A stretch of 60,469 nt of DNA, filler included, from 4 parts of 4 records of this genome joined end to end with filler, not necessarily neighbours in it, one strand, 5' to 3'. Positions 29,967-58,879 are shown, counted from the first letter of the whole stretch. A program made the numbers and translations. Notes: generated from the letters alone by a model not told the origin.

Positions 29967-30042
29967 GGTGTTGTAGATGGTTGCCGACATCAGTTCAATC
30001 TAGCAGAAACCATGCTGTCGTGAAACAGGCTTAAGCAGAAAC

Positions 30043-30075
30043 AAAAAAGCCCTAAGCAACGAGTGCTCAGGGCTT
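30043..30075 (-). terminator. Rho-independent terminator after tRNA-Ser
   Basis: AAGCCCTGAGCA-ctcgt-TGCTTAGGGCTT followed by T-run on the minus strand. Confidence 0.85.
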
Positions 30076-30080
30076 ATATT

Positions 30081-30154
30081 TGGCGGAGGGACAGGGATTC
30101 GAACCCTGGATGGTCGTTAAACCATGCCGGTTTTCAAGACCGGTGCATTCAACC
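30081..30154 (-). tRNA. tRNA-Ser(TGA), 5' end cut by contig end
   Basis: Reverse complement GGTTGAATGCACCGGTC-TTGAAA-ACCGG, long variable arm, GGTTCGAATCC T-loop, encoded CCA. Confidence 0.95.
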
Positions 30155-30254
30155 NNNNNNNNNNNNNNNNNNNNNNNNNNNNNNNNNNNNNNNNNNNNTT
30201 AATTAATTAANNNNNNNNNNNNNNNNNNNNNNNNNNNNNNNNNNNNNNNNNNNN
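30155..30254. other. Artificial contig spacer
   Basis: 44 N + TTAATTAATTAA (stops in all six frames) + 44 N. Confidence 0.98.
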
Positions 30255-30285
30255 CAAGTCTGAACAGAGTCAGGCACGCCAGCGA

Positions 30286-30998
30286 GGCGGTCTATCGTTT
30301 CCCCGCGCCACCGGGAGCCGGCGAGACTCAAGGGGCGCGAAAAGAGTCGGCGAAGGCGCGTTGGTTAACAGTGGGCCGTCGAAGGTGCCGCATATAAGGC
30401 TCTAGTCGATGGCTGCATTCACGCCAACGATGCCTCTCGTTTGGGCCGACGGCCGGGCGGATCCGGCAACACGCCCCAGACGGATCCTCACGGGATCCCA
30501 ACACTTGCGTGCTCAAGGCCGCGACGAATGAGTGCTGAGCGAACCGCACCGTGACTGCGGAGCCGACTGACCGGCCCGCTGGCGGGCTATCGTTTGCCCG
30601 ACGGGCCGCAGTCGTGGGTGAAGGGGCGCGAAACTCGGTCAGGGCCGGGCGGCGTCAGGAGGAGGCCCCGCCCGCGACCGCCGCCGCGCCGCCGCGGGGC
30701 TGGCTGTCGGAGTCGCGAGGGAGTCAGTGATTGAGTCAGTCCGCCGGGAGCCCTGAAACTCGGGCCGTGACGTACCCGGGGATCCCACTGATGAGTGAAT
30801 CAAAGGCGCGCCCCGGCGTGGGACGGAGGCCCAGACTGAGACGGCGGCCGGCCCGCTGGGTGCCAGTGATTGAGTCCGGCAGAGCCGGACGCCGGCCCGA
30901 GCGGCCGCCCGGCGCAGGCCGGGGCGCTCGGGCGGGCTATCCTTTGCCCGCGGCCGGCGGGGGGCGGCTGTCATTGGCGTTGCGTGCTGGGGCGCGAA
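30286..30998 (+). repeat. Three dispersed copies of a two-part motif upstream of the eukaryotic LRR gene
   Basis: GGCGG(G/T)CTATC(G/C)TTT(G/C)CCCG at 30286, 30581 and 30931, each followed by GGGGCGCGAA at 30332, 30623 and 30989. Confidence 0.75.
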
Positions 30999-31554
30999 CT
31001 CCAAAACTTCAGTACGGCGGTTCTGCCACGGGGGCTCCGAGTCATGGTGATCAGAGAGCCCACTGGAGTCACTGACACGAACGCCCCGGAAATACCCACT
31101 CGTTACATAGAGGGAATCGTTATTGCCAGATGAGTAGTATGGGCTCATGACGGATGGCCGGCCTCCATACGGGCCCCGCCCGGCGGAGTGCGGTCCGGTC
31201 GTCACCGAGCGGGCCGGCCGGGCGCCCGGCCGCCCGCCGCGGGGGCCGGGCCGCCGGGGGGCCGGGCCGCCGGGGGCCGGAGTCCGGCCAGCCGCCCCAC
31301 TAGGCGGGCCGTGCCGGGCGCCCCCGGCACTGCCGGGACGGAGCGGCCCGGACCACCCGGGCCCCCGCGGCGGTCGGGCCAGCGGTCGGGCCGCCGGGAG
31401 TGTCAGCTGCTTGGGCTGGCTGCTCAACTTGGGCGCTGCTCGGCGACAGCGCCCGACTTCCTGCATCCCGTGGGGCTTGGTGCCTGAGCTGCCGTGCACC
31501 TTGGAGCGCCACCCGCACGTCGCTGGCTCTGGGGTACCGAGGCCGCCCCGGCCA

Positions 31555-31562
31555 TATATAAG
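31555..31562 (+). promoter_or_regulatory. TATA box of the LRR gene
   Basis: TATATAAG in an otherwise very GC-rich region, ~50 nt upstream of an ATG in good Kozak context (ACAATGG). Confidence 0.6.
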
Positions 31563-31611
31563 CTGGTGTGCGCCACTATACCAGTCCATACCGAACAAGC
31601 CGACTGTCACA

Positions 31612-34600
31612 ATGGCGGCCGGGCGCGTGGGCGGTGCCTTGGCACTGCTCTGTGTCCTGGCCCTTGTGTGCGGCCAGGGCGAGGCCCCTGCAGAGCCGTC
31701 CCGCTTGCGAGCAGAGCTCTTGGCGGGGCGACACCGGGCTCCTGTGGTGAAGGATGACAACACCTACTGGAAGGACAAGTACGAAAGGCTCGCAGCGTTG
31801 TTCCGGAAACGGGTGGGGGAGGACCCAGAGGCCGTTGGGTCTAGCCGGCCGGCGGCGGGCTGGAGTGGGGTTGGGTTTGGGAAGTTCGGGGGCAGTCGCG
31901 TTGACTTGGAGGAAGTGAAAGAAGCACCTCCGCCTCCAACAGAGGAAATGCTTAGAGACCTCGAGGCACTGAATATCCGTACTCCGCATGAGCTTAATAA
32001 CGAGCGGATGCAGGCGCTGGTGGCCTCGCGGCCGGTGGGGTCGGTGGAACGCTTCCGGGCAGAGTATATGATGACGAGCTTCAAGTTTCTTTCTAATGAC
32101 GTTAAGGCGACGTTCAATATCACAAAGTGGTGAGTGTTTAACCGTTCTTGTGTAGCTATGACATGGCTTGAACTGGTACTAACGCGGGTGGCCGCAGGGA
32201 GCAGTACTTAATTAGAGAAGATGCGGTCCTCGCGGAGCTGCGAAGATACCTTATCAGCATCTCGGCGCTGGGAGAGGGAAGATGGATTGATCCTCCCACA
32301 TACACGTCGACTGGCCGCACGGCATGCCTCTACAGCGGTGTGCGGTGCTTTGACACCAGCCGGATGCGGTTTTTTAAGAAAAGGACACGCTCGAAATTCT
32401 ATGGCGTGTCGTCGGTATCGCTGACACCAAATGCACTGCCGGTGGGGTCGATGACTGGGGAGAGTGTGAACCACATTTTGATGCTCGTTGCGCGTCTGAA
32501 TAACTTGAGGTCGCTCAAGGTGGAGGGCCTGACGGCGGCGCGCCTGGAGCCTGCCCCATTCGCACGGATGAGACTGCACAAATTGACCATTGCGAACTGC
32601 CAGCATCTTAAGTCGATTCCAGAAGAGGAGTTCATGCGTTACAAGCATTTGCGGAAGCTACGTCTTAGCGATATTAGTGTGGATACATTGCGACCTGACC
32701 TGTTCAAGAACATGCCGCGGCTCCGGGTGGTTGTTTTTCATCAGCTCAAGATCACGTCAATGCCTCTGATTGCGCACCTGAACAGACTCGAGCGCTTGCT
32801 CATATCAGACCTGCAGCACCTTCGCGAGGTGCCATCGCTGAGAGGAAATAAGTCTTTGAAGGTCGTGGAAGTGACCTGGGCGCCGATCGAGCGCTTGTTT
32901 GATGGCATTGAGACCGTGTCAACCCTCACAGGGATTGATGTGAAGAGCACATTGCTTAAGTCACTTCCGGAAGATATCGGACAGCTCCAGAATCTCGAGG
33001 CGTTATTGCTTGCTAACAACAAGCTGGAGTCTATCCCGAAATCGCTGTACAAGCTTCCGGTGAAGAAGTAAGTAGAAAACCCCTTGTTTGGACGCTTCGT
33101 TGACCGTGTTTTGAAGGCTTTTTCTGAACGTGAACTCCCTTGAGTCGCTTCCGAAGGGTATCTCCGAGATGAAGAACCTCCGCATTCTCGCCCTTAATAA
33201 CAATAAGTGAGGCACCCGCCCCCGGCATATGTGTGCGTGATCTAACGACAACTGAAACAGGCTTGAAACGCTCCCTGAGGACCTGTGGGGCTGCCCATCA
33301 TTGCGGTCCATTTCAGCCGGCACCAACAGGCTGAGAGCACTTCCGGAAGCGGACCCAGCGAAGCACTTCAACGAGGTTCTGATATCCATTGACTTTGCGG
33401 ATAATGAACTCGAGGAGGTGCAGCCCATCCACGCGCGGGTGTGGCCTAGTATTGTGCAGATATCGTTAGGCAATAACCGTCTCCGGGGGCCGGTTGAATT
33501 TGTGGGCACTATGAGTCACTTGATGGACCTGCGCCTGTATGGCAACCCCATCGGTCATTTCGGCAAGAGCTGGAAGGGACTGAAGCTGACCCATCTGGAC
33601 TTGACGGAGTGTGGACTGACGAATGTTCCGGAATATATTGGGACGTACCGGTTCTTGAAGGTGATGCATCTTAAGCGAAACAAGATTACATCTCTTCCCT
33701 CGTCCATTGGTGATCTGCAAGCGTTGGAGGTAGCGACATGGCTTGCGATCATGATTCAATACTCACTGATGTCGCAGACTCTGTATGTGAATGACAACCA
33801 GCTTGAGGAACTGCCCGCCACCATGACCAAACTTCGGCGCCTGAAGGAAGTTCGCATGGAGAGAAACCGACTGAGAACATGGCCGGACCTCTCGGCGTCG
33901 CCCCTTCGCACACTCAACCTGAACCACAACCTGCTCAGGGAAGTCCCAGATTCCATAGCAAACTACGTGACGCTTTATTGGTTCAGCGCAGAGAACAATC
34001 AGGTCAGGCCGGATTCGTGATGGTGGTATATGTTGTGCGCTGACGCCGTGGCTGTACAGCTGGTGCGAGTATCGCCGGAGGTTGGAAAACTCCCAAACAT
34101 CCACATGATTTCGCTCAAGCAGAATCGCCTGAAGTCTTTGCCTAGCACAATGTCCAACCTTGTAAGGCTGCATAAGCTCGATGTCTCTTTCAACCAGATT
34201 GAGGAGCTCGGTTCCTTTGTCAATGGCCTGTCCGCCCTACGGGTTCTTCGGGCTGACCACAACAACATTGCACGCATCATGGTCCCGAGGTTTGAGATCG
34301 CGACGCTGAGGTCACTCGATCTCTCCTACAACAAGCTGACGGTATTGCCGGGCTGGAACAGCGGTGGCAACTTGCATACCGTGAATGTCGAATGGAACCA
34401 GCTGTATTCACTGCCGGACAGTAACGAATTCGGCAAACTCAAGTTCCTCTACGCTGCTCATAACCGCCTCGAGTCAATCCCTGATGCACTGCTGTATGGC
34501 TCACGGACTCTGACCAATAGTGTGGATGTGGATGTGAATAGCGAAGACGACCAGGGCATCGCGACTGTAGATTTATCATTTAACTTCATCAACCGGCTGC

Positions 34601-37146
34601 CGCCCCGCCGCAATCGTTTCATGCGTTTTAGCTCGATGTCTCTGGTGGGAAATCCATTGGATCATGTCGCTTCGGCCTTTACAATACCTGACGGCGGTAT
34701 TGTTGAGTTTGATTCGTCATTCGCGCTTGGCCGGCTAAGGCAGGCGACCGCAGGAAATGAGAACGACTCCAAAATTAATACCAACCTGGAGTCTACATAC
34801 GCCGTTCTGAATGTTCCGGCTGATGATCTGCGGCGGGTGTTTGGCCGCATGTTGCGACACGATGAGGGATGGGCGACGCCCGCTCAGCGGTCAGTAGCGA
34901 CGAGCCAGGGACTCGCTGGAGATGATAGCGGGATCACGGTAGAGAAAAAGACCTCACCGCAGCTTGAGACCATGACGACAGAGTGCTGGCGGGAAACCCT
35001 GAGGGCTGCTGATCGGAGGTTGACGATACGGAAGTGTGCGTGCGCCCCCGGAATGTATTTCACGCCTGCGGAGGCTTTGCATCTCATGGAGTGGATGCCG
35101 GTCACCGAGCTCAGTGACCATTGCGCCGCCTGCCCCTCTGCTGGGACGTGCAAGCGGGGCGAGGTGCATTGTGACGCCGGATCGTACCTCAAGTGGGGAT
35201 CAGAGAGTGGAAGTTCTGAATCCGACCCCGCAGATCAGGGGCGGGAGGGCATCCTTATTACTGGAGACGGTGGAACCAAAGAATTAGAAGGACAGGGACA
35301 GGAATCGGAAAGCCAAGTACGCCGTGCGGGTCGCCTGGCCTCGTGGTAAGTTCGCGTGATGTTGGTGAACGCTGTGGCGTGCTGAGCGGTGTTCACAGCG
35401 GGCAATGCCCCACCGGTGCCAAATGTGTGGACAAGTCTGTAACACCGATGAAGGGTTACTGGCGCTCGGACAGGTTTCCTGCGGTAGTATACGAGTGTGA
35501 GACCCCGGCAGCATGCGAGGGTGGGGAGGAGTCCACCTGTCGCACTGGGCATTCCGGGTCCCTCTGCAGCATCTGGTAAGCAACGGATCGATACTCCTTT
35601 TCTGGTGTGATGGCACTGACGACTGCTGCAGCGATCCCGGGTATTTCAAGTCTGCAAACGGCGTTTGCCAGGCGTGTGGATCGCGCGTGTCCTCGATATT
35701 CTATATCGGGTTTGTGGTTCTGGGTGCCGCAGGACTTTTGTCTATTCTGGTCTTCCTTGGAGACGGTATGGTCCGGCAGCTGGCGATGAAAAAGTCTGTT
35801 GAATCGCTTCCGACGGCGGGAGGCATGAACGCGGGTGGCGCCTTGTCTGTGATCCCTATGGACGAGCTTGCCGCGGCCATGTGCCGCATAGTAATTTCAT
35901 TTACTCAGGTGATAATTCCGCCGTTGTATAGCAGTTACTCTAGTTTCTGACGCTCAATTGACCACTAGGTGATCGCCCTGCTCCCACGCATCTACTCTGT
36001 GGACTTCGGCTCGTGGCTGCAATACGTCACGTCGCTGTTCTCGTTTCTGTCGTTGGACATCCTCTCCCCCTCCTCGTTCGAGTGTGCGCTGGAGTCTGAG
36101 ACCAACCAGCTGGATTACTTCATGTCAACCGTTGTGTACGGCGTGGTCCCCATCGCCGTGGCACTGGTGGGCATTGCGGTGTACCTGGTCTTCATCGTGA
36201 TGAGGAAGGCCATTGCACCCAAGGCGGGTGTGCAGCCGTCGTTTTTATCTGCGTTCTTGTGCAAGGTAGGCGTCGTTGCTGGACAAGGGCGGGCGACTCG
36301 TTGGGGGCGGCTGGCTGGTCAGGAAGTTGCGTGCTGACCCATTGCCTTCAGGCCGTTGTTCTCTGCTGGTTGTTTTCCTACCTTCCCATCGCGTTGACAA
36401 TGATGGAGTTTTTCACCTGCCGCACGTTCGACGGCGGCGAGACGTACTGGATCACTGCGGATGTTGCCACGTAAGTGTCATGGTGATGTGCCGGCCCCAA
36501 ACACGTTTCTCACACAACGGCCTGCAGCGAATGCTATTCCGAGACATGGTACGCCATGGTGCCGTTTGTCGTATTTGTAGTGGTATACTTCATTCTCGGC
36601 CTGCCGCTAATGATCTTCTTCCTGATGTTCCCGTGGCCACGGCACCTGGGCTCGGAGTGGATGAACCATCTCAGAGAGCGAATGGACCGAAGCCCATTGT
36701 GCATCCTTTTCAGGCGAATGTTCGCGCTGTACAGGACCAAGTACCAGTGGTGGGAAGCAGTGGAGATGCTTCGCAAGCTTCTTATAACGGCGGCAGCGCT
36801 CCACTTTGCGGGGGTCCCGACCGTGCGTGTCCTTGTGTCCATCCTCATTTCGTTCGGGGCCGTGGTGGCACAAATTTCCTTCCGCCCTTACCAACACCGT
36901 GTCCTGAATTTCCTTCAGTCGATTCAGCTTATCTTGCTGTACCTCACGCTATCGCTGGGGATATTGAAGTCGATACGACTGGAAGGGACGGCGAGGACCG
37001 CTTTGATGGGGGTGGTGGTGGTGTGTGACGTCGTGTTCATCTTCGGCCTCCTCTTTTCTGTGGGCGTCTACCTTGTGTACCAGGTATGCAATCAGTTCAC
37101 AGCAAGAAGAATGCGGGCCCTTGCGCGTGTCATGACGAGGCGTTGA
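31612..37146 (+). CDS. Eukaryotic LRR-ectodomain, Cys-rich, multi-pass membrane protein (TRP_C/FLC-like C-terminus), ~1648 aa, 11 exons
   Basis: Manual splicing gives a continuous frame with GT-AG introns 32130-32197, 33068-33116, 33207-33260, 33730-33777, 34003-34059, 35346-35398, 35576-35631, 35909-35968, 36266-36351, 36471-36527; signal peptide, ~28 LRRs, GYWR...C...GH.G.LC..C.PGYF module, ~9 TM segments. Confidence 0.85.
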
Positions 37147-37294
37147 TGCCGTCATGTGTTTCTATTTATAAATCAGACCAAGACTACCACCAGCGTTACT
37201 TGGAACAGTCTTTACTTTGTGGTAGCGACAGGGCCACGAGAGCCGATTCGGAGCCATGACAACAGGCCAGAGAGGAGGGTGCGGGAGGGGCAGT

Positions 37295-40200
37295 CTATGA
37301 CTTCATCTTGGACATGAATGCACCCAGGTCGTATTCCTCCTTATACTGGTCCTCATCCCACAACTCTTCCAGATTGTTCAAGACCGCATTCAGACTGCAA
37401 AAGAGACTCTTAATATTCCGCATGACCATCCAAAGCTGGAACCTACCCTGTCTTTTTATCGCCCTTTTTGTTGACGGAGCCCGTGGCGTCCACCGCATCC
37501 TTTCCGTCAGCAGTGGCATCTCCAGTGGCCTGCTGAGCGTTGTCAACCTCAAACAGATCCAGCAAGTCACTGGTGTCCATGCTTCGAATGTTGGAGTTCT
37601 TCTCGTTAACGACGGTGTTCGCGATGTTGACCTTAAACTTTTGAAGTCCCATAACTTTTTCCTCGAGGGTGGAGCGGGTGATGAGCCGGTACACATTCAC
37701 GGTCCGCTTCTGACCGATGCGATGGGCTCTGTCCATGGCCTGCAGATCCTTCATGGGATTCCAGTCATGCTCCATAAATATGACCGTGTCGGCGCCCGTC
37801 AAGTTGAGACCCAATCCTCCGACCTGAAGCCACGATGTTAGTACACACATATATATAGAGGAACGAAGGCGATTCCCAATGTCGTACCGATGTTGTCAGA
37901 AGCAGCACATCTATAGTTGGATCGGCATTGAATTCCTGCACGATATCAAACCGCTTGCTGACCTCTACACTTCCATCCAGTCTGCGCCACGTGACCGACG
38001 GCATCGACTTCTTAAAGTCTTTTTCAATCATGTCCACCATGGACTTGAGCTGGCAGAACACCAGCACCCGGTGGTTCGTCGCAACATCATCCACCTCCTC
38101 ACCCTTGGCCTCCTGCTTAACGCCGATGCCACAGTCCATCAGCAGCTCCCGCAGAGCAGTGAGCTTGGGGGCGGCGAAGTGGTCAGCTCGGGGATGAGAC
38201 TTTTCGACAGTCCGGATAATGGCCTATGTGAAAGGTCAGTACCAAACAGCACCAGCACCCGAGGTGGTCTCACATCATAGCGCGGATGCGACTTGTCAAA
38301 GACGAGCGCCGGGTGCGAACACAGCTTGCGGAGATACTGTAGCGCCTGGAAGACATGCGTGGCCCCCGCCTTACCACCTCCGTCCTCATCGACCCGTGTC
38401 GCCGCGTCCTCCAGCTCCTGCGCCTGCTGACGGCCGAAGTCTTGGTACAAGGCCATCTGGAGCGGGCTTAGGTCACAGTAGTAGTCCTGGATGATCTTGG
38501 GAGGGAGGTCGTGGAGGACCTCCTCCTTCGTCCTCCGCAGCACGAACGGAAGGACCTGGCGGTGCAGGCTTTCCAGCGCCACCACGCCGGCCTCCTGGTC
38601 CTTCACCGACGCCTTGCCATCTCGGCTTGCCATCACAGGCTTGCTGTACATATCATTGAACTGCAAAAACATCAGTCCCGGAAATTCTATCACGCCCTGG
38701 TGCTGGGCCCTCACCTGCTGCTCTGTGCCAAGGAAACCGGGCATGAGGAAATCGAACAAGGACCACAGCTCCAAAACCGAGTTCTGAATTGGAGTCCCGC
38801 TGAGAAGCAGGCGTCGTTTCGACGTCAGGCTCTTCACCGCCTTGGACCTCTCGCTCTTGGCATTCTTGATTACGTGCCCCTCGTCCAGAACCACGAAATT
38901 CCACGGTTGCTCCTATTCCGGAAGGTCAGAACCGCTGCGCTCCGGCCGCAATCTCGTCCGCTTACCCTAAAGTGAGCAACATCGTTCTTGAGAATATCGT
39001 AAGAAGTGATGACAATGTCGGTCTTGGCGAAGCGGGCACGCAACTTCCCCCGCTCATTCTGGGATCCCGAGTATACTATGGTCGTTACCGGATCAACGCA
39101 GAACTTCCTGATCTCATGATCCCAATGCGCGACCTGGCGAGAAACGATTAAGCGGCGCAGGAATGCAAGTGCGTGGACCCAGATACTGACCACTGTGGGG
39201 GGGGCAAGAACGAGAGAGGGAATCGGGGCATGCTCCCGGAGCTGGCTCTCCGCAAAGGCCCGGCGGCGCTCAAAGAGATCACTCGCCAAAATGCATATGG
39301 TCTGCAGGGTCTTGCCGAGACCCATATCATCGGCGAGGATTCCGTGCAAATTGAACTTGCGCAGGAATGCCAGCCAGGACACCTGGAGAGAGAGGGACGG
39401 TAAGGTCGCGACGGCAGAGTGGGATGGGGTGGGGTGAGACTCACGCCGTCCTTCTGATATTGACGGAGGTCGGCGTTGAGACGGACCGGAATCTCAAACT
39501 GGTCCACCTTGGAGCCATCAAGCAGCTGCTCCAGGAAATGGCGCTCCGTTGCCTTGGCCTCCCTGGTCGCCTCGTTCATTCCCGGAGGGTCCGGCACCGT
39601 CGCCTCCAGCGGCAGGATGCGGACAATAGACGCGAACGATCGGGCCACCTGAGAGCAGAGACATGAGACACACCTTTCTCGCCCGCAAATGACCGTACCT
39701 TGTCACGAATCGGCTTGCAGCCATCACTCATGCGGCCCAGGAGGGGCGCCACCAGGAATATCACGTAGGGCAGGACATCGATGCTAAGACTGGCGACGAT
39801 GTTGAACAAGGCATCCACCGCGCCCTGCCGGTTCACCTCCGAGTCGCTCTCGTTGAGGCGGGGGACGAGCACGTCAATGGATCTCATCATCACGGCGTGG
39901 GTATGAACCTTGGCATAAGCGGAGAGCGTGCAGGCAGCGCGCTCCCGGACCTGCAATGACTCCTAAGCATGACTACAGAACTTCAAGAACGCTACACCCA
40001 CCGCGGCTGTTGGCGATTGGAGGGCTGCCATGATGCCGTCCAAGAGCACCAGGCAGTGTTCCAGCAGCTGTTCGGTCATTGCAGGCAGAAGCACCTCCAG
40101 AAGCCTTAGAGACTCCAAAATGGTTTGCGCTGTTAGACCAGTCATCAGCAACATCGCACCCCGTTTGACTCAGGCAACCCTTACCGCTTGCCGTATCGAC

Positions 40201-42260
40201 GCCAGCAGCTTTCCACGTGAAGTTTCCTGGTGGTTTGAATGACGCCGCCAGGTCACGTAACTGGACGAGTGGACCCGAGACGATCTCCCACAACCGCGGG
40301 AAAGACTGCATCAGCTGGTGCCCGAGCGCGTGGGCCACGGCGACCAAGGCGGCCTCGCCACCCTTGCGTTTCACAGTGGCATCATCGTCCTCTTCTAATA
40401 ACGACACGGGTTCAGCGCAGGGCTCCTCTGCCCACTAAGCAATACTTACCGGCCTCTCCATCCGTCGTCAAGTCAGGCACCACGACCCGGTCCGCGCAGG
40501 CAAACTTGCACAGATTCTTCGCCAGGATGTCATTGCTCTTTCTCCCCACGCACTGCACACATCCCATCAGCCGCGTTCCCATCCCCGCCGCTAGAGCTCA
40601 CCTGGCGCACAAGCTCTCCAATCGCCGCTCCGAATCGCTTCTGCATCCCTGGATCGCTATCCGCCTTCACCTCATTCATCAGCGACTTGATCACCGGGTT
40701 GAGGCTCGGAGGCAACCGGCCGGACTGGACAATCGCGGCGGCCGCGGCGGCATTGGCACGCAGGCCCAGTGTCTCCTGGTGGCTGACATAAAGGCCCACG
40801 GTGGTGAGTAGGCGCTTGCGTGAGGCCTCCAAGCGTTGGAAGTCCTTGTCCTCCAGGCTGTTGCCTTCCATCACCCCGTCGTATATGGCAGTGCACAGCG
40901 AGTGGGCGGACTCGAGTGTGACCTCGGACGCGACGACCGCGCTAGCGGCTGCGATGCGGTCGCGGGCCAGGGCGGAGGTGGCCTCCAGGTCCATCACCAA
41001 CGCCTTGGACTCGCCCTGCATCCCCTTCCGGATCGCAACCATCTCAGCGTACGCCTGTGCAGACGTGAGGCGGTGAGACACCATCAAAAAAGGCTTTCGG
41101 CATTGTGAATGTTACCTCAAGGTCACGAGAACCCGTGACCACAGCAAGCAGGTCTTCGTGCAGCTGATCAGACAGCCCGGCCGGGGATCCTGGTCATAGA
41201 AATCAGGCCGCCACCACTCCAAAAGCACACCGCCGCTCACCTCCAGCCTGCTCAGCCCATGAGCGCACAGCCAGCGCCGCGACACAACGCGATGTGCCAT
41301 GGTCGCCGGCCAGTGCAGGGCGGAAGTGTTCCGCCTCCAGGTTCGACTTGGTGCCGTCATCCAGGGCCATGACAAGCTGACCAAGCATGTCAGCCCCATC
41401 GAGTTGAATCAGTGTGGAGCCAGCCGCGTCCTCAAGCTACAACAGCGAATTAGCCCACCCCCTAGCCTCTTCATCCCACCGGGGCCTCACCCCATATACA
41501 CCGCCCGCCCGCTTGCGCCTCGACTTGGTTTTGGCGTCGTCGGTGTTCGTTGCCGATGGTGCCCGGACTATCAGGACACTGCTGGTGTTCTGGAAAGGAC
41601 GAGGATTAAGACATCAGAAATCAATCGGAAGGCAGCCTGCCTACCATCGGCCTGCCATTGGGCGTCGCAGCCATGGCCATCCAATCGCCGAAGTGTGGCA
41701 AAACAGCCTCTGTGAGCACCCCCCGCGGCACCACGGACAAGACACGCCGCCACAGTGACTGCGTCAGGGCACGGATGTCTCCCTTGTCCTCCAGCAGAAT
41801 GTTCTGGAATACGAGGCGGGTGATGTCGGAGACGAGCGCCGGGGTGAGCCAGCTCTGCGCACCACTGCCCACCAGGATGTGGTCGAGGGTGACCAGTACG
41901 GAACGCCGCACGGATACCATGCTGTGCCGGAAGAATTGCCATAGCCGCGTGATGAAGTAGGTCAGCGGATGATCCGATATCTGTGTGGCCGCAAGGACGG
42001 ACGCGCCGTCCCCGCCGAGCACCCGTGCCACAGCAATATTGGACATGGAAGCCAGCTCCTTGTAAGAATACATCATGCCCAGCAGATTCATGATACTGGC
42101 CGTGGACGAGGCCAGGTCGTCCAAGTCAAGCATCGTATCCCACAGTGTCGAGAGAAGAGACGGCAGCTGGGCCGCGCTGTGCGTGAGGAGGAAGGGCACC
42201 GCTGGAATGATAGTGTCAGCAGCACACCCGCGGACGTCATCGTCCTTGTCTGAAAGGCAC
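37295..42260 (-). CDS. MOT1: TBP-associated SNF2 ATPase MOT1/BTAF1, 5'-truncated, intron-rich
   Basis: DDDVR HEAT motif, HGILADDMGLGKTLQT, VLDEGH, LSGTPIQN, LPPKIIQDYYC, HRVLVFCQ, GGLGLNLTGAD, DWNPMKDLQAMDRAHRIGQ, ELWDEDQYKEEYDL; 16 complete GT-AG introns traced (e.g. 37395-37446, 37824-37887, 38224-38273, 38661-38714). Confidence 0.93.
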
Positions 42261-42463
42261 CTGGGACAGATGTGAGCAACAGGCCGCGTGGATGTGTGGG
42301 AGAAGAGGGCGCGTGAAGTGTGAGCAGGAAACCAGGAGGAGCTAAGGCACGGTACGAGTTCCCCATGCCATGCCTGGAGTCAGGGCTGGGAGATAGCGCT
42401 GCTCATTGCGGGCTTGTGTGGAAAGGAAGAGGATTTGGGGGGAGGGGGGGGGGGGGGGGGGGG

Positions 42464-42563
42464 NNNNNNNNNNNNNNNNNNNNNNNNNNNNNNNNNNNNN
42501 NNNNNNNTTAATTAATTAANNNNNNNNNNNNNNNNNNNNNNNNNNNNNNNNNNNNNNNNNNNN
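42464..42563. other. Artificial contig spacer
   Basis: 44 N + TTAATTAATTAA + 44 N. Confidence 0.98.
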
Positions 42564-42951
42564 CTATGAGTGGAATACCTTCCTCGGCAAGGTTAACCCC
42601 GGTCTTGAAGGCAAGGCAGACATGGCTGAAATGGCATGGATGACCAACGACCCGGACACCCTGCCCTTCCTGGCGTTGAGAACAGATGCCTTCCCGGAAA
42701 ACGGCGGCTTCAACTCCGGTTACTACTCCAACCCCGAAGTCGACAAATTGCTTGAGGAAGCCCGCACAGCCACAGATCAGGAAAAGCGTGCCGAGCTATA
42801 CAGACAAATGCAGGCAATTGTGCATGATGATGCGCCTTGGGTTTTCGTTGCCAACTGGAAGCAGAATGCTGTGACCAAGGCCGGTGTTGAAAACTTCAAG
42901 CTTCAGCCGTCCTTCTTCCTGCAACTGCAAAATGTTGCAAAGCCGAACTGA
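42564..42951 (+). CDS. ABC transporter substrate-binding protein (family 5, peptide/nickel type), C-terminal fragment
   Basis: Frame open from contig start; NSGYYSNPEVDKLL...RAELYRQMQ...DAPWVF typical SBP5 C-terminus. Confidence 0.88.
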
Positions 42952-42960
42952 TATCTGCGA

Positions 42961-43323
42961 ATGGCAGACCCGCACGACAAAATCCGGCAGATCTGTCTTG
43001 ATCTGCCGGAGACCTTCGAACAGGAGGCCTGGGGCGACCCCACATTCAGGGTTCGCAACAAAATCTTCTGCATGGTGAAACAGGGCGACGGTCGGCTTTC
43101 AGCGTGGGTCAAAGCCCCGCAGGGCATGCAGTCGGTGCTGATTGATGCGGTCCCTGAACGCTTTTTTCGCCCGCCTTATGTCGGCCACAAGGGCTGGGTC
43201 GGCATAAGACTTGATGATGCGCCCGACTGGGCAGAAGTCGGTGTGCACGTGCACCGGAGCTATGATCTGATCGCGCCTGAAAAGCTCCGCGGGCAGAAAG
43301 ACGATCCTGACAAGCGAGGGTAA
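42961..43323 (+). CDS. MmcQ/YjbR family protein
   Basis: ICLDLPET, PTFRVRNKIF, FFRPPYVGHKGWVGIRLD, SYDLIAP. Confidence 0.85.
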   Translation: MADPHDKIRQICLDLPETFEQEAWGDPTFRVRNKIFCMVKQGDGRLSAWVKAPQGMQSVLIDAVPERFFRPPYVGHKGWVGIRLDDAPDWAEVGVHVHRSYDLIAPEKLRGQKDDPDKRG

Positions 43324-43326
43324 CCC

Positions 43327-44271
43327 ATGGCACGCTATATCCTGCGGCGGCTTCTAACCGTCATACCGGTGCTTTTTGGCCTGACGATCATCGTCTTTCT
43401 GATTATGGCGATGATCCCCGGCGACCCGGCGACCGCTATTCTGGGTGCCTATGCGACGCCGGAAAATGTTGAGCGTATCAATCGTGCGCTGGGCCTCGAC
43501 AAGCCTTTGTTCCAGCAATACTTCATCTGGCTCGGCAATATTCTTCAAGGCGATTTCGGCCGCTCCTATACCCAGAACCGGCCTGTCATAGACATCATTT
43601 CCGAACGTTTTGGCAATACGCTGATTCTCGCCGGCACCTCACTGGTTCTCTGTTCCATCCTTGGTCTTCTGGCGGGCATCATCTCGGCTGTGCGCCAGTA
43701 TGGACTGACGGACAAGCTGGTCACTTTTTTTGTTCTGATCGGAATATCGATTCCTTCGTTCTGGCTGGGTCTGCTTCTGATTCTCGTTTTCGCCGTCGAT
43801 TTGAAATGGTTTCCGGCCAGCGGCATGTACGCCATTTATGGCGGCGGCGGACCAATGGACCTGCTGCGCCATCTTGTTCTGCCCGCTTTCACCCTAGCCG
43901 TGGTGGCAACTGGTGTCATTGCCCGGCTGACCCGCACTTCCATGCTTGAAGTGATGCGACAGGATTATATCCGCACCGCCCGTGCCAAGGGGCTTAAAGA
44001 ACGCCGCGTTATCATGCGCCATGCGTTCAAGGCAGCCCTTGTCTCCGTCATTCCGGTGCTCGGCATTCAGGCCGGTTTTGTGCTGGGCGGTGCTGTGTAC
44101 ATCGAAACCGTGTTCCAGTGGCCCGGCATCGGCTCGATGCTTGTCACCGCCATTTCCACACGCGACCTGCTTGTCGTGCAGGGCGGCGTTCTAGTGGTGG
44201 CTGCTGCTTATGTTCTCTTCAATCTGGCCGCTGACGTGGTTCAGACCATGATCGATCCGAGGTTACGCTGA
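43327..44271 (+). CDS. Peptide/nickel ABC permease (DppB-like)
   Basis: PGDPA, GDFGRS, SIPSFWLG, EAA loop DYIRTARAKGL, ETVFQWPGIG. Confidence 0.93.
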   Translation: MARYILRRLLTVIPVLFGLTIIVFLIMAMIPGDPATAILGAYATPENVERINRALGLDKPLFQQYFIWLGNILQGDFGRSYTQNRPVIDIISERFGNTLILAGTSLVLCSILGLLAGIISAVRQYGLTDKLVTFFVLIGISIPSFWLGLLLILVFAVDLKWFPASGMYAIYGGGGPMDLLRHLVLPAFTLAVVATGVIARLTRTSMLEVMRQDYIRTARAKGLKERRVIMRHAFKAALVSVIPVLGIQAGFVLGGAVYIETVFQWPGIGSMLVTAISTRDLLVVQGGVLVVAAAYVLFNLAADVVQTMIDPRLR

Positions 44272-46211
44272 TGAGTGATACCACGGCCAATACAGCCCCA
44301 AAGGCAAAGAAGAAAAACGGTGGACGCCCCAGCGCGCTCAGCCTGCTTTTGAATAACACTCTGGCGACCGGCGGACTGATCGTCTTTATCGTGATCGTGC
44401 TTGTGGCACTGGCCGCACCGATCCTCCCGCTCCAGCCGCCGAATATTACCGATCCATCCGTGCGGTTGTCTCCCCCCTTGAGTGAAGGTCACCTTCTTGG
44501 GACGGACGCACTCGGACGCGATCTGCTGTCCCGCCTGCTCTGGGGGACACGCGTCAGCCTCGCCGTTGGCATCTCCGCCACGTTGATTGCCGCTTTCTTC
44601 GGCTCGCTGATCGGTCTTGTTGCCGGCTATGCCGGTGGTCGCGTTGACAATACGCTGATGCGCGGCATCGATATGGTCATGGCATTTCCGTATATTCTGC
44701 TGGCGCTCGCCATCGTCGCCGTCCTCGGCCCGGGGCTATTGAATGCGCTTTACGCCATTGCCATCGTCAACATCCCCTTCTTTGCCCGTAATATTCGCGG
44801 CATCACACTTGGACTTTCGCGACGTGAATTCGTTGATGCTGCCCGGCTTTCCGGCATGTCACACACACGCATTCTGTTTACAGAAGTACTGCCGAACGTG
44901 CTCCCGGTGATTATCATCACCATGTCGACCACCATCGGCTGGATGATCCTTGAAACGGCGGGGCTTTCCTTCCTTGGATTGGGCGCCCAGCCACCGCAAG
45001 CCGACCTCGGCTCGATGCTGGGCGACGGGCGCAAGGTGCTGTTTACCGAAGCCTATGTCTCAATTGTTCCGGGACTGATGATCTTTGCGTTGGTGATGAG
45101 CATCAACCTTTTGGGCGACGGTATCCGCGATGTGCTCGATCCGCGACTGAAATCCGGAGCGCTGGCACGTCCGGGCGCAAGAACTGCAGTCAAGCGCGAA
45201 ACTGTGCCCAGTGATGGCCAGAAGGCAGGCACCGTACTCGATGTTCAGCAGATGCGCACGGAGTTCCATGTCGGCGGGAGCGTCTACAAGGCCGTCGGCG
45301 GCGTTGATCTGTATTTGCGCGAAGGTGAATGTCTGGGGCTGGTCGGTGAATCCGGTTCTGGTAAATCCGTCACAGCCATGTCGCTGATGGGACTGGTGCC
45401 GACCCCGCCCGGCCAGATTTCAGGCGGGGCTGCCTATCTGAACAATGAGGATCTGTTTGCCGCCAGTGATGAACGTATCCGCCAGCTGCGCGGCGCGGAC
45501 GTCTCGCATGTGTTTCAGGATCCACTTTCAACGCTGCATCCGCTGTTTACCGTCGGAGAACAGCTGGTGGAAGCTATCCAGGCCCATCAGCCACTCTCAA
45601 AGTCACAAGCCCGTCAAAAAGCGGCAGACCTGCTGGAATCAGTTCGCATTCCCAATGCGGCCAATCGCCTGGATTCGTTCCCGCATGAACTTTCCGGCGG
45701 TATGCGCCAGCGCGTAACCATCGCCATGGCGCTAGCCAATGATGCGAAAGTGATTGTCGCCGATGAACCAACCACAGCACTCGACGTCACCGTTCAGGCA
45801 CAGATTCTGGAAATGATGGATACGCTCAGGCGAGAACGCCAGACGGCAATCCTGTTCATCACCCATGATTTCGGCGTTGTCTCAGCAATCTGCGACCGGG
45901 TTGCGGTGATGTATGCCGGGCGGATTGTTGAAACCGGCACAACAGCCGAGATTCTGGAACGCCCTGCCCATCCCTATACCGCCAAACTGATTGACTGCGT
46001 GCCGGTTCTGGGCGAACCGGAGCGTCGTCTTGATGCCATCGAGGGCCGACCACCGGTGGTCAACAACCTGCCGGAAGGCTGTGCCTTCGCAGATCGATGC
46101 CACTTCGTTCAGGAAGATTGTCGCAGAGGCGATATCGGTTTGACAGCACTTGGCGAGGAACGCGGCGTGCGCTGCCTTCATCCGCTCAACCGGGAGAATG
46201 CCGATGGCTGA
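44271..46211 (+). CDS. Fused ABC permease (DppC-like) + ATP-binding domain (DppD-like)
   Basis: HLLGTDALGRD, EFVDAARLSG, GDGIRDVLDPR then GESGSGKS, LSGGMRQR, DEPTTALD and C-terminal Cys motif in one frame. Confidence 0.92.
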   Translation: MSDTTANTAPKAKKKNGGRPSALSLLLNNTLATGGLIVFIVIVLVALAAPILPLQPPNITDPSVRLSPPLSEGHLLGTDALGRDLLSRLLWGTRVSLAVGISATLIAAFFGSLIGLVAGYAGGRVDNTLMRGIDMVMAFPYILLALAIVAVLGPGLLNALYAIAIVNIPFFARNIRGITLGLSRREFVDAARLSGMSHTRILFTEVLPNVLPVIIITMSTTIGWMILETAGLSFLGLGAQPPQADLGSMLGDGRKVLFTEAYVSIVPGLMIFALVMSINLLGDGIRDVLDPRLKSGALARPGARTAVKRETVPSDGQKAGTVLDVQQMRTEFHVGGSVYKAVGGVDLYLREGECLGLVGESGSGKSVTAMSLMGLVPTPPGQISGGAAYLNNEDLFAASDERIRQLRGADVSHVFQDPLSTLHPLFTVGEQLVEAIQAHQPLSKSQARQKAADLLESVRIPNAANRLDSFPHELSGGMRQRVTIAMALANDAKVIVADEPTTALDVTVQAQILEMMDTLRRERQTAILFITHDFGVVSAICDRVAVMYAGRIVETGTTAEILERPAHPYTAKLIDCVPVLGEPERRLDAIEGRPPVVNNLPEGCAFADRCHFVQEDCRRGDIGLTALGEERGVRCLHPLNRENADG

Positions 46212-47193
46212 TGATCTGCTGATGGAAATAAAAGGCGTTGAGCGCACATTTGGCGGCGGCAAAACATTGTTCGGCAGGCAAAAGCCAGCCGTTCATGCCG
46301 TTCAGGATGTAACCATCAACGTTGAAACGGGCGAAACACTCGGCATTGTCGGGGAATCCGGTTGTGGCAAGTCAACACTGGCGCGTGTTCTTTCCGGGTT
46401 GGATATTCCGACCGAAGGCCGGATCACCTTTCAGGGCAAGGATCTGATCGAAGAAGCACGCAAAAACCCGCGTGAACTGGCCCGCCAGGTTCAGTATGTG
46501 TTTCAGGATCCGGTATCCTCGCTGAACCCGCGCAAGAAAATCCGCACCATTCTGGAAGCACCGCTTATACACCTTCGGGGTATGAAAAAGACCGAGCGCG
46601 CAGAGCGGCTGAAGACACTGATGGATGCGGTCAATCTGGCACCGGAGTTTCTGGACCGCTATCCGCACGAGTTTTCCGGCGGTCAGGCTCAACGCATCGG
46701 TATCGCCCGTGCGCTTGCTGCCGATCCGGAAGTCATTGTTCTCGATGAGCCTGTTTCCGCCCTTGATGTTTCAGTTCAGGCACAGGTGCTCAACATTCTG
46801 GATGACCTAAAGGCTCGGTTCGGCCTGACTTATCTGTTCATCAGTCATGATCTTTCTGTCGTCGAAACCATTTCAGACCGGGTTGCGGTGATGTATTTCG
46901 GCAGGATTGTTGAACTTGGCACCCGCAACAAGGTATTTGCCGAAGCCCGTCATCCCTATACACACCTGCTGCTTAATTCTGCCCCTGCTCCCGGTCGCAA
47001 GGCAGTTTCCGGCGGAGATCGGGAGGCAGAGCTTCCCGATCCCTACAACCCACCGCCCGGCTGCGCATTCTACGCCCGCTGTCAAAATGCTGCGGACGAC
47101 TGCCGACATGCCGTTCCCTCACTCAGCGAAACCAGTGATGGCGCAGACCATGGAGCGGCTTGCTTTCATCCGATGATGAAAAAGACAGCATGA
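46204..47193 (+). CDS. ABC ATP-binding protein (DppF-like)
   Basis: GESGCGKST, FSGGQAQR, DEPVSALD, PPPGCAFYARC. Confidence 0.93.
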   Translation: MADDLLMEIKGVERTFGGGKTLFGRQKPAVHAVQDVTINVETGETLGIVGESGCGKSTLARVLSGLDIPTEGRITFQGKDLIEEARKNPRELARQVQYVFQDPVSSLNPRKKIRTILEAPLIHLRGMKKTERAERLKTLMDAVNLAPEFLDRYPHEFSGGQAQRIGIARALAADPEVIVLDEPVSALDVSVQAQVLNILDDLKARFGLTYLFISHDLSVVETISDRVAVMYFGRIVELGTRNKVFAEARHPYTHLLLNSAPAPGRKAVSGGDREAELPDPYNPPPGCAFYARCQNAADDCRHAVPSLSETSDGADHGAACFHPMMKKTA

Positions 47194-47975
47194 CAAGACC
47201 GAAAAAAAAACGACAGGAATTCGGTACACCTCTGGCGGAAAAGAAGCGCAAGCGGCCGGATATCACCGCCGATATCCTGCGTGAGCGCATGATCGCAAAC
47301 GCACTGAAACCTGGTGATCGCATACCGGCCGACTGGCTTGACCCGGAACACCTTGGCGTTTCGCGCGGCACGCTGCGCGAGGCGTTGAAAATCCTAGAAT
47401 TTCAGGGGATGATCGCCACTAAAACCGGGCCGGGCGGTGGCGTCTTCGTGCGTCAGGTAGAGCCATCAGAGGCCATACAGACTGTCACCAATCTGTTTTT
47501 GCAATCGCCGCCTTCCATTGCTGATATCTACGCCCTGCGCAAAATACTGGAGCCGGAGCTTGCTGCCGATGCGGCTCGTGAATTCCCGCTGGACAAGGTC
47601 GAGGAACTGCAATCCACAATCCGGCTTTATGAAGCGCAACCTGAAACCGGTGAAGAAGAATATATTCAAAGGCTGGCCGAACTGGATTTTCATGCGGAAC
47701 TGGCCCGCTACTCGACGAACAAAATCCTTGGCTTCACCTGCGGTCTGTTGCTCAACCTCTTGCGCGACCTTGCCGAATGCCGGGCGATCTACGAAACGCC
47801 CAATCCAGGCTTGCGTGAAACCGGAATTTTATATCAAATATCCCTCATCAAGGCGATCCGTGCCCGCAACAGCGAAGAAGCAAGGCGGATCATGGCGGAG
47901 CACATGATTGACGCCGAGAGCTACATGCTGCAACGCGCGGCGATAAACCGAGCGCGCAGGGACAGTGATACCTGA
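47190..47975 (+). CDS. GntR/FadR family regulator with FCD domain
   Basis: LKPGDRIP, GVSRGTLREALKILE, GPGGGVFV, DFHAELA, MAEHM. Confidence 0.9.
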   Translation: MTRPKKKRQEFGTPLAEKKRKRPDITADILRERMIANALKPGDRIPADWLDPEHLGVSRGTLREALKILEFQGMIATKTGPGGGVFVRQVEPSEAIQTVTNLFLQSPPSIADIYALRKILEPELAADAAREFPLDKVEELQSTIRLYEAQPETGEEEYIQRLAELDFHAELARYSTNKILGFTCGLLLNLLRDLAECRAIYETPNPGLRETGILYQISLIKAIRARNSEEARRIMAEHMIDAESYMLQRAAINRARRDSDT

Positions 47976-48006
47976 AAAGCCACCTTGATGCGGATGATCA
48001 AAGAAG

Positions 48007-48951
48007 ATGCATATCGGGCATAAACATACGATCCACGATCACGACGGACACCTGGGCTGGAACCGCGCCCTGCAGCCGGTCATGCGCACGGTCTCCGGTG
48101 AAACCATCACCTTCTGCTGCCGGGATGCCGGAAACGGCCATTATCATGCCGGTTCAACCGCTCATGATGTGCTGACCGCAAATCCCGATGCAGCCAATCC
48201 GCTGACCGGTCCGCTGTTTGTGGAAGGAGCAGCACCCGGCGATGCGTTAAAAATCACGATCCATGAATTTGCCCCCTCCGGCTTCGGCTGGACCGCAATT
48301 ATTCCCGGTTTCGGGCTTTTGTCCGACCAGTTCCAGACGCCAAAACTGAAGCTCTGGAACTATGATACCGGCATTTCAGAGCCCGCCGTTTTCAATGCCC
48401 ATGCAAGCCTGCCACTAAGGCCTTTTATCGGCACCATCGGGGTTGCACCGGCAGAACCGGGAACACATTCCGTCATCCCGCCACGCCGCGTCGGCGGCAA
48501 TATGGATATACGCGATATTGCAGCAGGAACAGTGCTTTATCTGCCCGTCGAGGTCGAGGGCGCACTTCTTTCTATCGGCGATACACATGCAGCCCAGGGA
48601 GACGGTGAGGTTTGTGGCACGGCGATCGAAAGTGCGATGGATGTTTCCATCACTGTCGAGGTGATCAAGGACGCAGCACCAAAGACACCGCATTTCATGA
48701 CCCCCGGTCCAATTTCACGGCATCTCGATGCAGCCGGGTATGATGTTACCACCGGCATCGGCCCGGATCTGATGCAGGCTGCGCGCGATGCGGTTTCGGC
48801 AATGATCGACCTTCTGGCCCGCACGCGCAACCTCAATGCAGAAGATGCTTATATGCTGTGTTCAGTCTGTGGCGACCTTAAAATCTCCGAAATCGTCGAT
48901 GCACCGAACTGGGTCGTCTCGTTTTATTTCCCGCGCATCGTGTTCGGCTGA
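48007..48951 (+). CDS. Acetamidase/formamidase family protein
   Basis: NPLTGP, GGNMD, GDTHAAQGDGEVCGTAIE, AYMLCSV. Confidence 0.92.
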   Translation: MHIGHKHTIHDHDGHLGWNRALQPVMRTVSGETITFCCRDAGNGHYHAGSTAHDVLTANPDAANPLTGPLFVEGAAPGDALKITIHEFAPSGFGWTAIIPGFGLLSDQFQTPKLKLWNYDTGISEPAVFNAHASLPLRPFIGTIGVAPAEPGTHSVIPPRRVGGNMDIRDIAAGTVLYLPVEVEGALLSIGDTHAAQGDGEVCGTAIESAMDVSITVEVIKDAAPKTPHFMTPGPISRHLDAAGYDVTTGIGPDLMQAARDAVSAMIDLLARTRNLNAEDAYMLCSVCGDLKISEIVDAPNWVVSFYFPRIVFG

Positions 48952-48954
48952 CCG

Positions 48955-50148: not shown

Positions 50149-50151
50149 TGC

Positions 50152-51984: not shown

Positions 51985-51996
51985 CCGCGGGCTCCC

Positions 51997-53772: not shown

Positions 53773-53835
53773 GATCGGGTCGGGTTCTCCTGTGAGATGC
53801 ATTTAGCGGGCAGATGCCCAATGAAGGTTACAACT

Positions 53836-53883
53836 TAGTTACAACAGAAATCATTTGAGTTCAAATCATTTTTGTTGTAACTA
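53836..53883. promoter_or_regulatory. 48-bp near-perfect palindrome, candidate operator between asnO and the MarR gene
   Basis: TAGTTACAACAGAAATCATTTGA-GT-TCAAATCATTTTTGTTGTAACTA; 21 of 24 positions pair; core TTTGA-N2-TCAAA. Confidence 0.78.
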
Positions 53884-53889
53884 TCCGCC

Positions 53890-54105
53890 ATGACGAACAT
53901 CAAAAACCTAGGTCTGAATAGAGACGCCAGTGTGACGCCCGGCAATGCGCAATCGGTCATGAAATCGATCCGGCGCATCGCCCACGCCATTGATACGCGT
54001 TCAAAACGTATTGGCCGGGAAACGGGACTGACCATTCCGCAGATTGTTGTATTGCAGGCCGTCCACGACCAGGGAGCGCTGACGACGGCGGCAATCTCGA
54101 AGCAG
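53890..54105 (+). CDS. MarR family regulator, EctR/CosR-like, 3'-truncated
   Basis: SIRRIAHAIDTRSKRIGRETGLTIPQIVVL resembles the RRI..AID..SK....GLT.PQ pattern of EctR/CosR. Confidence 0.78.
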
Positions 54106-54205
54106 NNNNNNNNNNNNNNNNNNNNNNNNNNNNNNNNNNNNNNNNNNNNTTAATTAATTAANNNNNNNNNNNNNNNNNNNNNNNNNNNNNNNNNNNNNNN
54201 NNNNN
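54106..54205. other. Artificial contig spacer
   Basis: 44 N + TTAATTAATTAA + 44 N. Confidence 0.98.
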
Positions 54206-54588: not shown

Positions 54589-54589
54589 A

Positions 54590-55462: not shown

Positions 55463-55594
55463 TAAGCTTAACTCTCCACACTTCGTCTTCGTCAGCCGAT
55501 CTAGGGAATTCTGGCGCCGCGACACTAAACACCAACAGAATAGTACCTTGGGTTTGCAATACACAAAACCCTATGCGTTAATATCCCCGGACCG

Positions 55595-55684: not shown

Positions 55685-55709
55685 CCCTCAAGACAACGCC
55701 CCCCCCCCC

Positions 55710-58870: not shown

Positions 58871-58879
58871 GAGTTTTCA

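Follow-up and report, generated by a model that had tools for sequence, protein, structure and literature searches.

Within a stretch of 60,469 nucleotides (nt) of DNA, hereafter called the window, we identified a gene that encodes a leucine-rich repeat (LRR) ectodomain of about 1200 residues followed by a predicted nine-helix membrane module. This analysis showed that the gene belongs to a large, uncharacterised receptor family of protists, in which LRR versions are rare. As judged by alignments, the membrane module is distantly related to the fungal PF06011 proteins (Pkd2, Flc1-3 and TrpR), and together with a Cys-rich neck it forms the conserved core of the family. By homology with the fungal members, we propose at about even odds (a probability of roughly 0.5) that the protein is a single-polypeptide surface receptor of a microbial eukaryote, whose core would be cation-permeable and probably tension-sensitive and whose LRR array would be the binding or tethering part. 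In the following paragraphs, we summarize the gene structure, the sequence features of the individual protein parts, their relatives and the readings that compete with this proposal. The coordinates of all features are collected in Table 1.

The joined exons comprise 4947 nt, corresponding to 1648 codons and one terminal stop, and contain no internal stop codon. All 10 introns follow the GT..AG rule, are 48–86 nt long and in most cases contain, close to their 3′ end, a branch motif of the CTNAC-like type. The joined exons reproduced the coordinates, the number of introns, the length of the protein and all motifs given in a preliminary description of this DNA. Splicing was compared with a public run of unrecorded kind (X1), in which a fraction of 0.37 of the sampled words is present and which we take to be cDNA-like, because its contigs skip introns. 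Introns 5, 7, 8, 9 and 10 are precisely absent from X1 contigs, and so is intron 6, with five letters replaced at the start of exon 7. One X1 contig of 1276 nt spans exons 8–11, another contains the end of exon 6 together with exons 7 and 8, and spliced contigs also connect exon 5 with exon 6. Of the 10 junctions proposed earlier, six (introns 5–10) are thus supported by transcripts, and the other four (introns 1–4) are left uncovered by X1. Across introns 2, 3, 4 and 5, the LRR register of 22–24 residues continues over each junction, and the relatives described below are colinear across the junctions of exons 7–11, with the consensus at the second Cys of the conserved loop passing the exon 10/11 junction without a gap. 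The basis for intron 1 is canonical splice signals and frame continuity only.

The LRR and membrane parts belong to one gene, as had been proposed, because exon 6, a single open exon, encodes the final LRRs as well as the first Cys cluster and is connected to exons 7–11 in spliced contigs. It is therefore very improbable that the fusion is due to mis-assembly or to an error in the gene model by which an LRR gene was joined to a separate membrane-protein gene. The window does consist of concatenated contigs and exons 1–4 have no read support, but the linkers between contigs lie outside the gene, spliced contigs join exons 5–6, 6–7–8 and 8–11, and LRRs ahead of the membrane module recur in two relatives, P0110, there with a Cys-rich stretch in between, and P0169 (relatives are referred to by such handles throughout). 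Between positions 34782 and 35860, X1 and the window show eight single-position differences, of which three are synonymous and five are not, in addition to the five-letter change in exon 7. X1 carries another allele or strain of the LRR gene, and eight differences are too few for any inference on selection.

The protein starts with a hydrophobic segment (hydropathy peak of 2.1 over amino acids [aa] 1–27), in keeping with the signal peptide noted before. Exon 1, which encodes this segment and part of the following N-terminal region, gave 0 Pfam families at E ≤ 1. Ahead of the LRRs lies a Cys-containing cap (W...CLYSGVRC), and a comparable C-x-Y-x-x-V-C motif precedes the LRRs of P0110. The preliminary description had likened the cap to the plant-type LRRNT_2 cap, a likeness that did not hold at the level of the domain: LRRNT_2 (PF08263) had no match at E ≤ 1 in the Pfam scan of the exons, including exon 2, and the resemblance comes down to the short C-x-Y-x-G-V-x-C motif. 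The LRR solenoid consists of 28–29 units in register (aa 243/276–937), close to the 28 or so counted by eye, with a modal length of 23 residues and one 40-residue unit that contains an insertion. Pfam LRR_8, LRR_4 and LRR_1 match exons 2–6 (LRR_8 with E-values of 3.2e-12, 2.4e-12 and 1.1e-11 in exons 2, 4 and 6, respectively), and these tandem LxxLxLxxNxL units, recognised by LRR profiles, belong to the LRR superfamily. The nearest solved sequences are those of Leptospira LIC11098 (E 1.9e-29 and 6.3e-30), SHOC-2 and LRRD1, with plant receptor kinases ranking lower among the solved LRR matches. By these comparisons, the repeats are of the 23-residue SHOC2/Leptospira-LIC type and not of the 24-residue plant type.

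The LRRs are followed by a linker, a first Cys cluster (aa 1033–1095) and an acidic/Gly-rich linker (aa 1096–1152), all encoded in exon 6, for which Pfam returned nothing beyond the LRRs. The acidic/Gly-rich linker is exonic, because an X1 contig covers positions 35132–35345 contiguously and without a skip. The subsequent Cys-rich neck, which corresponds to the stalk seen earlier, resembles DUF7630. Exon 7 alone matches this family (PF24633) with 14.4 bits (E 0.042, profile positions 2–26 of 45) against a cutoff of 27 bits, and the remainder of the DUF7630-like domain is encoded in exon 8, past intron 7. The neck is colinear with the DUF7630-bearing stretches of the relatives P0001, P0028, P0070 and P0025 and of P0083.

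The relation of the membrane module to PF06011, which the preliminary description had suggested, proved to be weak in the direct comparison and strong through relatives. Exon 11 (205 aa) matches PF06011 ("TRP") with 16.3 bits (E 0.0044, profile positions 285–417 of 426). A search with the same exon among 1.84 billion representatives found 634 proteins at E ≤ 1e-3, three of which reach 1e-10. We scanned 148 of the top 150 relatives with Pfam, omitting two proteins of more than 5000 aa. PF06011 matches 75 of these 148 relatives (8/25 at E ≤ 1e-3 and 67/123 at E ≤ 1e-4), and 47 reach the gathering score of 28.5 bits. For example, P0006 is linked to exon 11 with E 1.8e-10 and to PF06011 with 42.4 bits. 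The kinship is therefore transitive, and further comparisons with family members extend it beyond exon 11. The spliced C-terminal 492 residues (aa 1153–1644) align with residues 33–514 of P0083 in one colinear block of 90.8 bits, and a family profile built from 126 relatives, with the window row excluded, matches the spliced protein with 190.4 bits over aa 1328–1632. In an atlas look-up, the nearest clusters (score of 0.95) were eukaryotic, with PF06011 on 12–19% of their members. TRP_N (PF14558) had no match on any exon at E ≤ 1; this ML-like domain, which precedes the membrane module in most fungal Flc proteins, is described in a report on Cryptococcus Flc1 as a feature of the fungal subfamily and not as part of PF06011 itself (PMC9600462). 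A word-indexed search with exon 11 gave no match, which is weak evidence, and of 34 pattern matches in metagenome contigs tblastn confirmed none.

Hydropathy and mapping onto P0083 yielded nine helices in the module, in agreement with the about nine hydrophobic segments described before. The structural model of P0083, predicted from a 131-row alignment, has a mean predicted local distance difference test score of 82.6 and a predicted template modelling score of 0.80. It consists of a beta-rich neck and long helices, the fourth and fifth of which are separated by a small beta-hairpin (strands 308–324 in the model), and its long last helix continues into the cytosol. The corresponding hairpin of the window protein contains a Cys pair that is kept in 94/98 and 104/107 aligned relatives, respectively. 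The WE..RK and RPY motifs reported earlier are both present. The first forms the hallmark YQWWEAVEMLRK, in which W is shared by 118/149, E by 122/150, R by 126/150 and K by 133/150 relatives, whereas within RPY the P is found in 149/150 and the Y in 84/150 relatives. With the N-terminus outside and nine helices, the conserved Cys residues all fall into predicted outside loops, and both hallmark motifs lie at the predicted cytosolic face. The predicted topology, with the N-terminus out, about nine helices and the C-terminus in, matches the orientation reported for Pkd2 (PMC9727806). The Pfam scan of the exons found no kinase, TIR or other signalling domain, and only about 20 residues follow the last helix, as expected from the earlier observation that a kinase or TIR tail is absent.

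Sequence comparisons indicate that the neck and membrane module recur as a conserved core throughout a very large family of protist proteins, whose ectodomains are swapped. Among the 25 longest scanned relatives, Ephrin_rec_like domains (15/25) and TIG domains (9/25) stand ahead of the shared core. Kelch repeats, WD40/NHL propellers and CUB, PA14, He_PIG and cadherin-like domains are likewise present in this set, and P0123 has SRCR. Members with a source name include hypothetical proteins of Tetrahymena thermophila, Gonium pectorale, Chlamydomonas incerta and Aureococcus anophagefferens. In addition, cNMP-binding, EF-hand, SH3, WW or GYF domains are found beside the core in P0075, P0094, P0149, P0036, P0088, P0080, P0059 and P0052. 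In the first three of these, cNMP-binding or EF-hand domains follow the membrane core, as they do in many regulated channels, which is a lead towards channel function. The domains beside the core hint that its activity is under cytosolic control in some lineages.

LRR ectodomains are rare in this family. They occur in a single one of the 148 scanned relatives, P0110, and a profile search of proteins of 1706–4870 aa found 21 relatives, two of which match LRR families, namely P0169 and, from Aureococcus, P0170. The uncharacterised relatives that the preliminary description had expected thus exist, and three of them carry LRR ectodomains. P0110 (1180 aa) begins with a signal peptide and a similar Cys cap, which are followed by LRRs, a Cys-rich stretch and the membrane module. 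Its LRRs share generic repeat similarity only with those of the window protein, and a search with its neck and membrane region matched P0110 alone. P0169 (1777 aa, with the source name "Leucine-rich repeat (LRR) protein") combines an N-terminal hydrophobic segment, about 25 regex-detected LRR units of 23 residues (LRR_8, 270 bits) and a membrane module that was matched only via the family profile, with 61 bits. On these comparisons, neither P0110 nor P0169 is an orthologue of the window gene.

Literature searches of main texts found nothing on PF06011 fusions of this kind outside fungi, and nothing was found on DUF7630/PF24633. The papers found that use the term PF06011 most are fungal, and single mentions occur in papers on crustaceans, a bivalve and human TMEM18 and in none on protists. 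As the preliminary description had supposed, no characterised protein with an LRR and PF06011-like architecture surfaced in the literature searches. The core family is, however, known to Pfam, and its LRR-bearing relatives are already in databases.

How such a protein may work is best considered from the outside inwards. The signal peptide would place the horseshoe of about 28 LRRs, the linker and the disulfide-rich neck on the extracellular or lumenal side, and the nine helices would follow, leaving the 20-residue tail in the cytosol. Outside the cell, the LRR array may bind a ligand or tether, for instance prey, matrix or a cell surface. Binding or pull could be relayed via the rigid disulfide-rich neck to helix 1, and the membrane module would pass cations, chiefly Ca2+, under ligand binding or under pull combined with membrane tension. 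The parallel would be fission-yeast Pkd2, which turns Ca2+-permeable under membrane stretch. When reconstituted in vesicles, Pkd2 is reported to let Ca2+ pass on hypo-osmotic stretch (PMC9727806). Cryptococcus Flc1, which consists of TRP_N and a PF06011 domain, has been linked to calcium homeostasis (PMC9600462), and Aspergillus TrpR, which is located in the Golgi, is reported to influence both Ca2+ and the cell wall (PMC8618638). The results above establish the gene structure, the architecture, the family membership and the logic of the topology, whereas we infer that the protein lies at the surface, conducts ions and is gated by its ectodomain.

Several findings weigh against this proposal. 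The score of exon 11 against PF06011 lies below the gathering cutoff of 28.5 bits, with the module split over exons 8–11. The best match to exon 11 is 29–30% identical and no close orthologue is present among the 1.84 billion representatives, so that conservation of the LRR fusion is not demonstrable. Coverage by X1 begins at position 33812, beyond exons 1–4 and introns 1–4, and X1 and the assembly may share a source sample. The signal peptide and the Cys-rich neck are the only basis for assuming a surface location, and the fungal TrpR and Flc proteins are placed in the Golgi or endoplasmic reticulum (ER) and discussed as possible transporters in the report on TrpR (PMC8618638). Fold comparisons add to these points. 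Foldseek with the P0083 model returned 0 matches in the PDB at E ≤ 0.001 (best E 0.088, TM-scores ≤ 0.16), and VIA on the top 1000 of Foldseek reached a best Z of 5.7. When the model was compared with 48,161 representatives by VIA-align, the best match was Hrd1 (Z of 8.1, root-mean-square deviation of 6.8 Å, 191 aligned residues), which is at noise level for helical bundles. The family sequence profile found no solved relative in the PDB (best E 0.28). Finally, the loops that connect the last four helices comprise about five residues in the P0083 model.

Canonical TRP channels are tetramers of six-helix subunits with a pore loop between S5 and S6. The short loops of the P0083 model leave no space for an S5–pore–S6 unit among the last four helices of the module, and no TRP or polycystin chain is present among the Foldseek, VIA and PDB-profile matches listed. 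"TRP" is here the name of a Pfam family and not a demonstrated fold. The null fold searches are no evidence for a new fold. Because no solved TRP or other fold matched the P0083 model, the case for channel function comes solely from the fungal Pkd2 data.

The same results bear on a second reading, the main rival, which we consider possible but unlikely. In this view, the protein would serve in adhesion or recognition, and its nine-helix module would act as an anchor, scaffold or transporter and would not signal by ion flux. A flavin-carrier role was once proposed for yeast Flc. With the P0083 model, no pore-like or TRP-like fold was recovered, the relatives have ectodomains typical of adhesion (TIG, cadherin-like, CUB and PA14), the window protein has no cytosolic signalling domain, and the authors of the TrpR study discuss a transporter-like role (PMC8618638). 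However, nine helices far exceed what an anchor needs, the residues E, E, R, K and P are near-invariant among the aligned relatives, and the module is conserved in all of the 634 representatives. The cNMP-binding and EF-hand tails of relatives point to a regulated activity, and the sole homologue that has been reconstituted, Pkd2, is reported to pass Ca2+ (PMC9727806).

The location of the fungal proteins bears on a third reading, a distinctly improbable one, in which the protein would act in Ca2+ homeostasis within the ER or Golgi in the manner of Flc and TrpR, with lumenal LRRs that bind cargo or precursors of cell walls or scales. This would agree with the reported presence of TrpR in the Golgi (PMC8618638) and, in part, of Pkd2 in the ER (PMC11333956), and with the description of fungal members as having a lumenal or extracellular N-terminal domain too, TRP_N (PMC9600462). 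By contrast, a 1200-residue LRR ectodomain, like the adhesion modules in relatives, is more typical of surface proteins.

Comparison with known systems places the protein closest to the protist family of ectodomain, DUF7630 neck and multi-pass membrane module (e.g. P0001, P0028, P0083 and P0099), with which it shares the order of parts, the colinear neck and module, the WE..E..RK and PY motifs and the loop Cys pair. It differs from these relatives by its long LRR array and by the absence of a cytosolic domain, and identity does not exceed about 30%. P0169 and P0110 share its overall layout, in which an N-terminal hydrophobic segment and an LRR array precede the family membrane module. The fungal proteins Pkd2, Flc1 (of S. 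cerevisiae and C. neoformans) and TrpR (of A. nidulans) contain a homologous module, an extracytosolic N-terminal domain and a cytosolic C-terminus. Their ectodomain is, however, the small ML-like TRP_N, in place of some 1200 residues with LRRs and a Cys-rich neck, and their C-terminal tail is long, whereas that of the window protein has 20 residues.

Other systems resemble the protein in single aspects. Animal polycystin-1 and polycystin-2 combine a giant LRR-containing adhesive ectodomain with a channel-related multi-pass part and are implicated in mechanosensing. The likeness to them is by analogy only, and the number of helices and the layout of the loops differ. The volume-regulated LRRC8 anion channels also carry LRRs and a channel in one chain, and LRRC8A and LRRC8D are among the LRR sequence matches. 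Their LRRs are C-terminal and cytosolic and their pore domain is unrelated, whereas the LRRs of the window protein are N-terminal and stand behind a signal peptide. Plant LRR receptor-like kinases and receptor-like proteins share the signal peptide, the Cys-containing cap and the long extracellular LRR array followed by the membrane. A plant-type LRR receptor was rejected on account of the lack of LRRNT_2 and kinase matches in the Pfam scan, repeats of 23 and not 24 residues, and nine helices instead of one.

Table 1. Features of the LRR gene and of the surrounding DNA; positions are counted from the first letter of the window.
Feature	Position	Strand	Residues	Details
Coding region	31612..37146	+	1648 aa + stop	11 exons, 10 introns
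Exons 1–4	31612-32129, 32198-33067, 33117-33206, 33261-33729	+		
Exons 5–8	33778-34002, 34060-35345, 35399-35575, 35632-35908	+		
Exons 9–11	35969-36265, 36352-36470, 36528-37146	+		
Start and hydrophobic signal-peptide-like segment	31612..31677	+	1-22	from hydropathy
N-terminal region	31678..32282	+	23-201	includes intron 1 (32130-32197); no family match
Cap, W...C-x-Y-x-G-V-x-C	32283..32348	+	202-223	read from the sequence, ahead of the LRRs
LRR solenoid	32406..34698	+	243-937	28–29 units; introns 2–5 inside
Post-LRR linker, first Cys cluster and acidic/Gly-rich linker	34699..35343	+	938-1152	all in exon 6
Cys-rich neck, DUF7630-like	35344..35677	+	1153-1227	interrupted by introns 6 and 7
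Nine-helix membrane module, PF06011-related	35681..37095	+	1229-1632	exons 8–11; from hydropathy and alignments
Helices 1–5			~1233-1257, 1285-1312, 1352-1381, 1396-1424, 1448-1478	mapped via the P0083 alignment
Helices 6–9			~1518-1535, 1541-1561, 1567-1591, 1598-1628	mapped via the P0083 alignment
Predicted extracellular hairpin between helices 4 and 5, conserved Cys pair	36415..36537	+	1425-1446	crosses intron 10
Hallmark Y-x-W-W-E-x-x-E-x-x-R-K	36742..36777	+	1515-1526	YQWWEAVEMLRK; predicted cytosolic start of helix 6
Hallmark R-P-Y	36883..36891	+	1562-1564	after helix 7
Short basic predicted cytosolic tail	37084..37146	+	20 aa + stop	
Eukaryotic contig with the LRR gene	30255-42463			12.2 kb; bounded by linkers; tetranucleotide profile unlike the flanks
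Linkers	30155-30254, 42464-42563, 54106-54205			each a pair of 44-N runs around TTAATTAATTAA

The window unites four contigs with linkers of the form N44-TTAATTAATTAA-N44, a six-frame-stop type, between them. The tetranucleotide correlation of the contig with the LRR gene to its two flanks is 0.51 and 0.62, compared with 0.77 between the flanks. The other three contigs (1–30154, 42564–54105 and 54206–60469) are of bacterial type, with long uninterrupted open reading frames, which include AlaRS, RecA, MutS, DUF885, TrpE, a radical-SAM protein and a cmoB-like methyltransferase, as well as an ABC permease/ATPase, an M42 peptidase, a GNAT/ATP-grasp protein, AsnB and an MFS transporter. A mixed bin or contaminated assembly is the apparent source of the three bacterial and the one eukaryotic contigs. 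As the window consists of joined contigs and the others are bacterial, they are uninformative on the LRR gene. At the end of the first bacterial contig (30090–30154), a tRNA-like T-arm motif of the GGTTCGAATCC type is present on the reverse strand; ARAGORN found no complete tRNA in this interval, so that the tRNA gene seems to be truncated by the contig end.

On the eukaryotic contig, an intron-split gene for an SNF2-family ATPase (37200–42463, - strand) is convergent to the LRR gene, and its SNF2-rel_dom and Helicase_C matches lie in separate frames. An X1 contig begins at position 37202, about 55 nt past the stop codon of the LRR gene. At its end, the eukaryotic contig has over 20 consecutive G (42440–42463), which resembles a sequencing or assembly end artefact. 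Upstream of the LRR start codon lie 1.36 kb (30255–31611), in a composition bin (30001–32000) with 64% G+C. This stretch has long stop-free frames on both strands (e.g. 30639–31763, - strand, 374 codons) and gave no Pfam match; it is probably a non-coding promoter or 5′ untranslated region. No second copy of the LRR gene was found within the window.

A bolder version of the proposed surface receptor, which we regard as a rather long shot, is that the protein is the LRR member of a widespread, undescribed class of protist "receptor-channels", in which an exchangeable ectodomain for recognition or adhesion (LRR, TIG, beta-propeller, cadherin-like and others) would be coupled directly via a DUF7630 neck to a Pkd2-type, Ca2+-permeable nine-helix domain. 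If so, binding to or pull on the ectodomain would open a Ca2+ signal within one polypeptide, as a single-chain counterpart of polycystin-1/polycystin-2, and the LRR version may serve in the recognition of microbes, prey or mates. The sensing of surfaces, prey and partners by free-living protists is poorly known, and a mechanism has been assigned to few of their receptor families. With its hundreds of divergent members and interchangeable binding domains, a family whose shared core is related to a protein that passes Ca2+ on membrane stretch would be a strong candidate for a general protist sensing system, and its LRR member offers a concrete construct to ask whether binding to or pull on an ectodomain gates ion flux.

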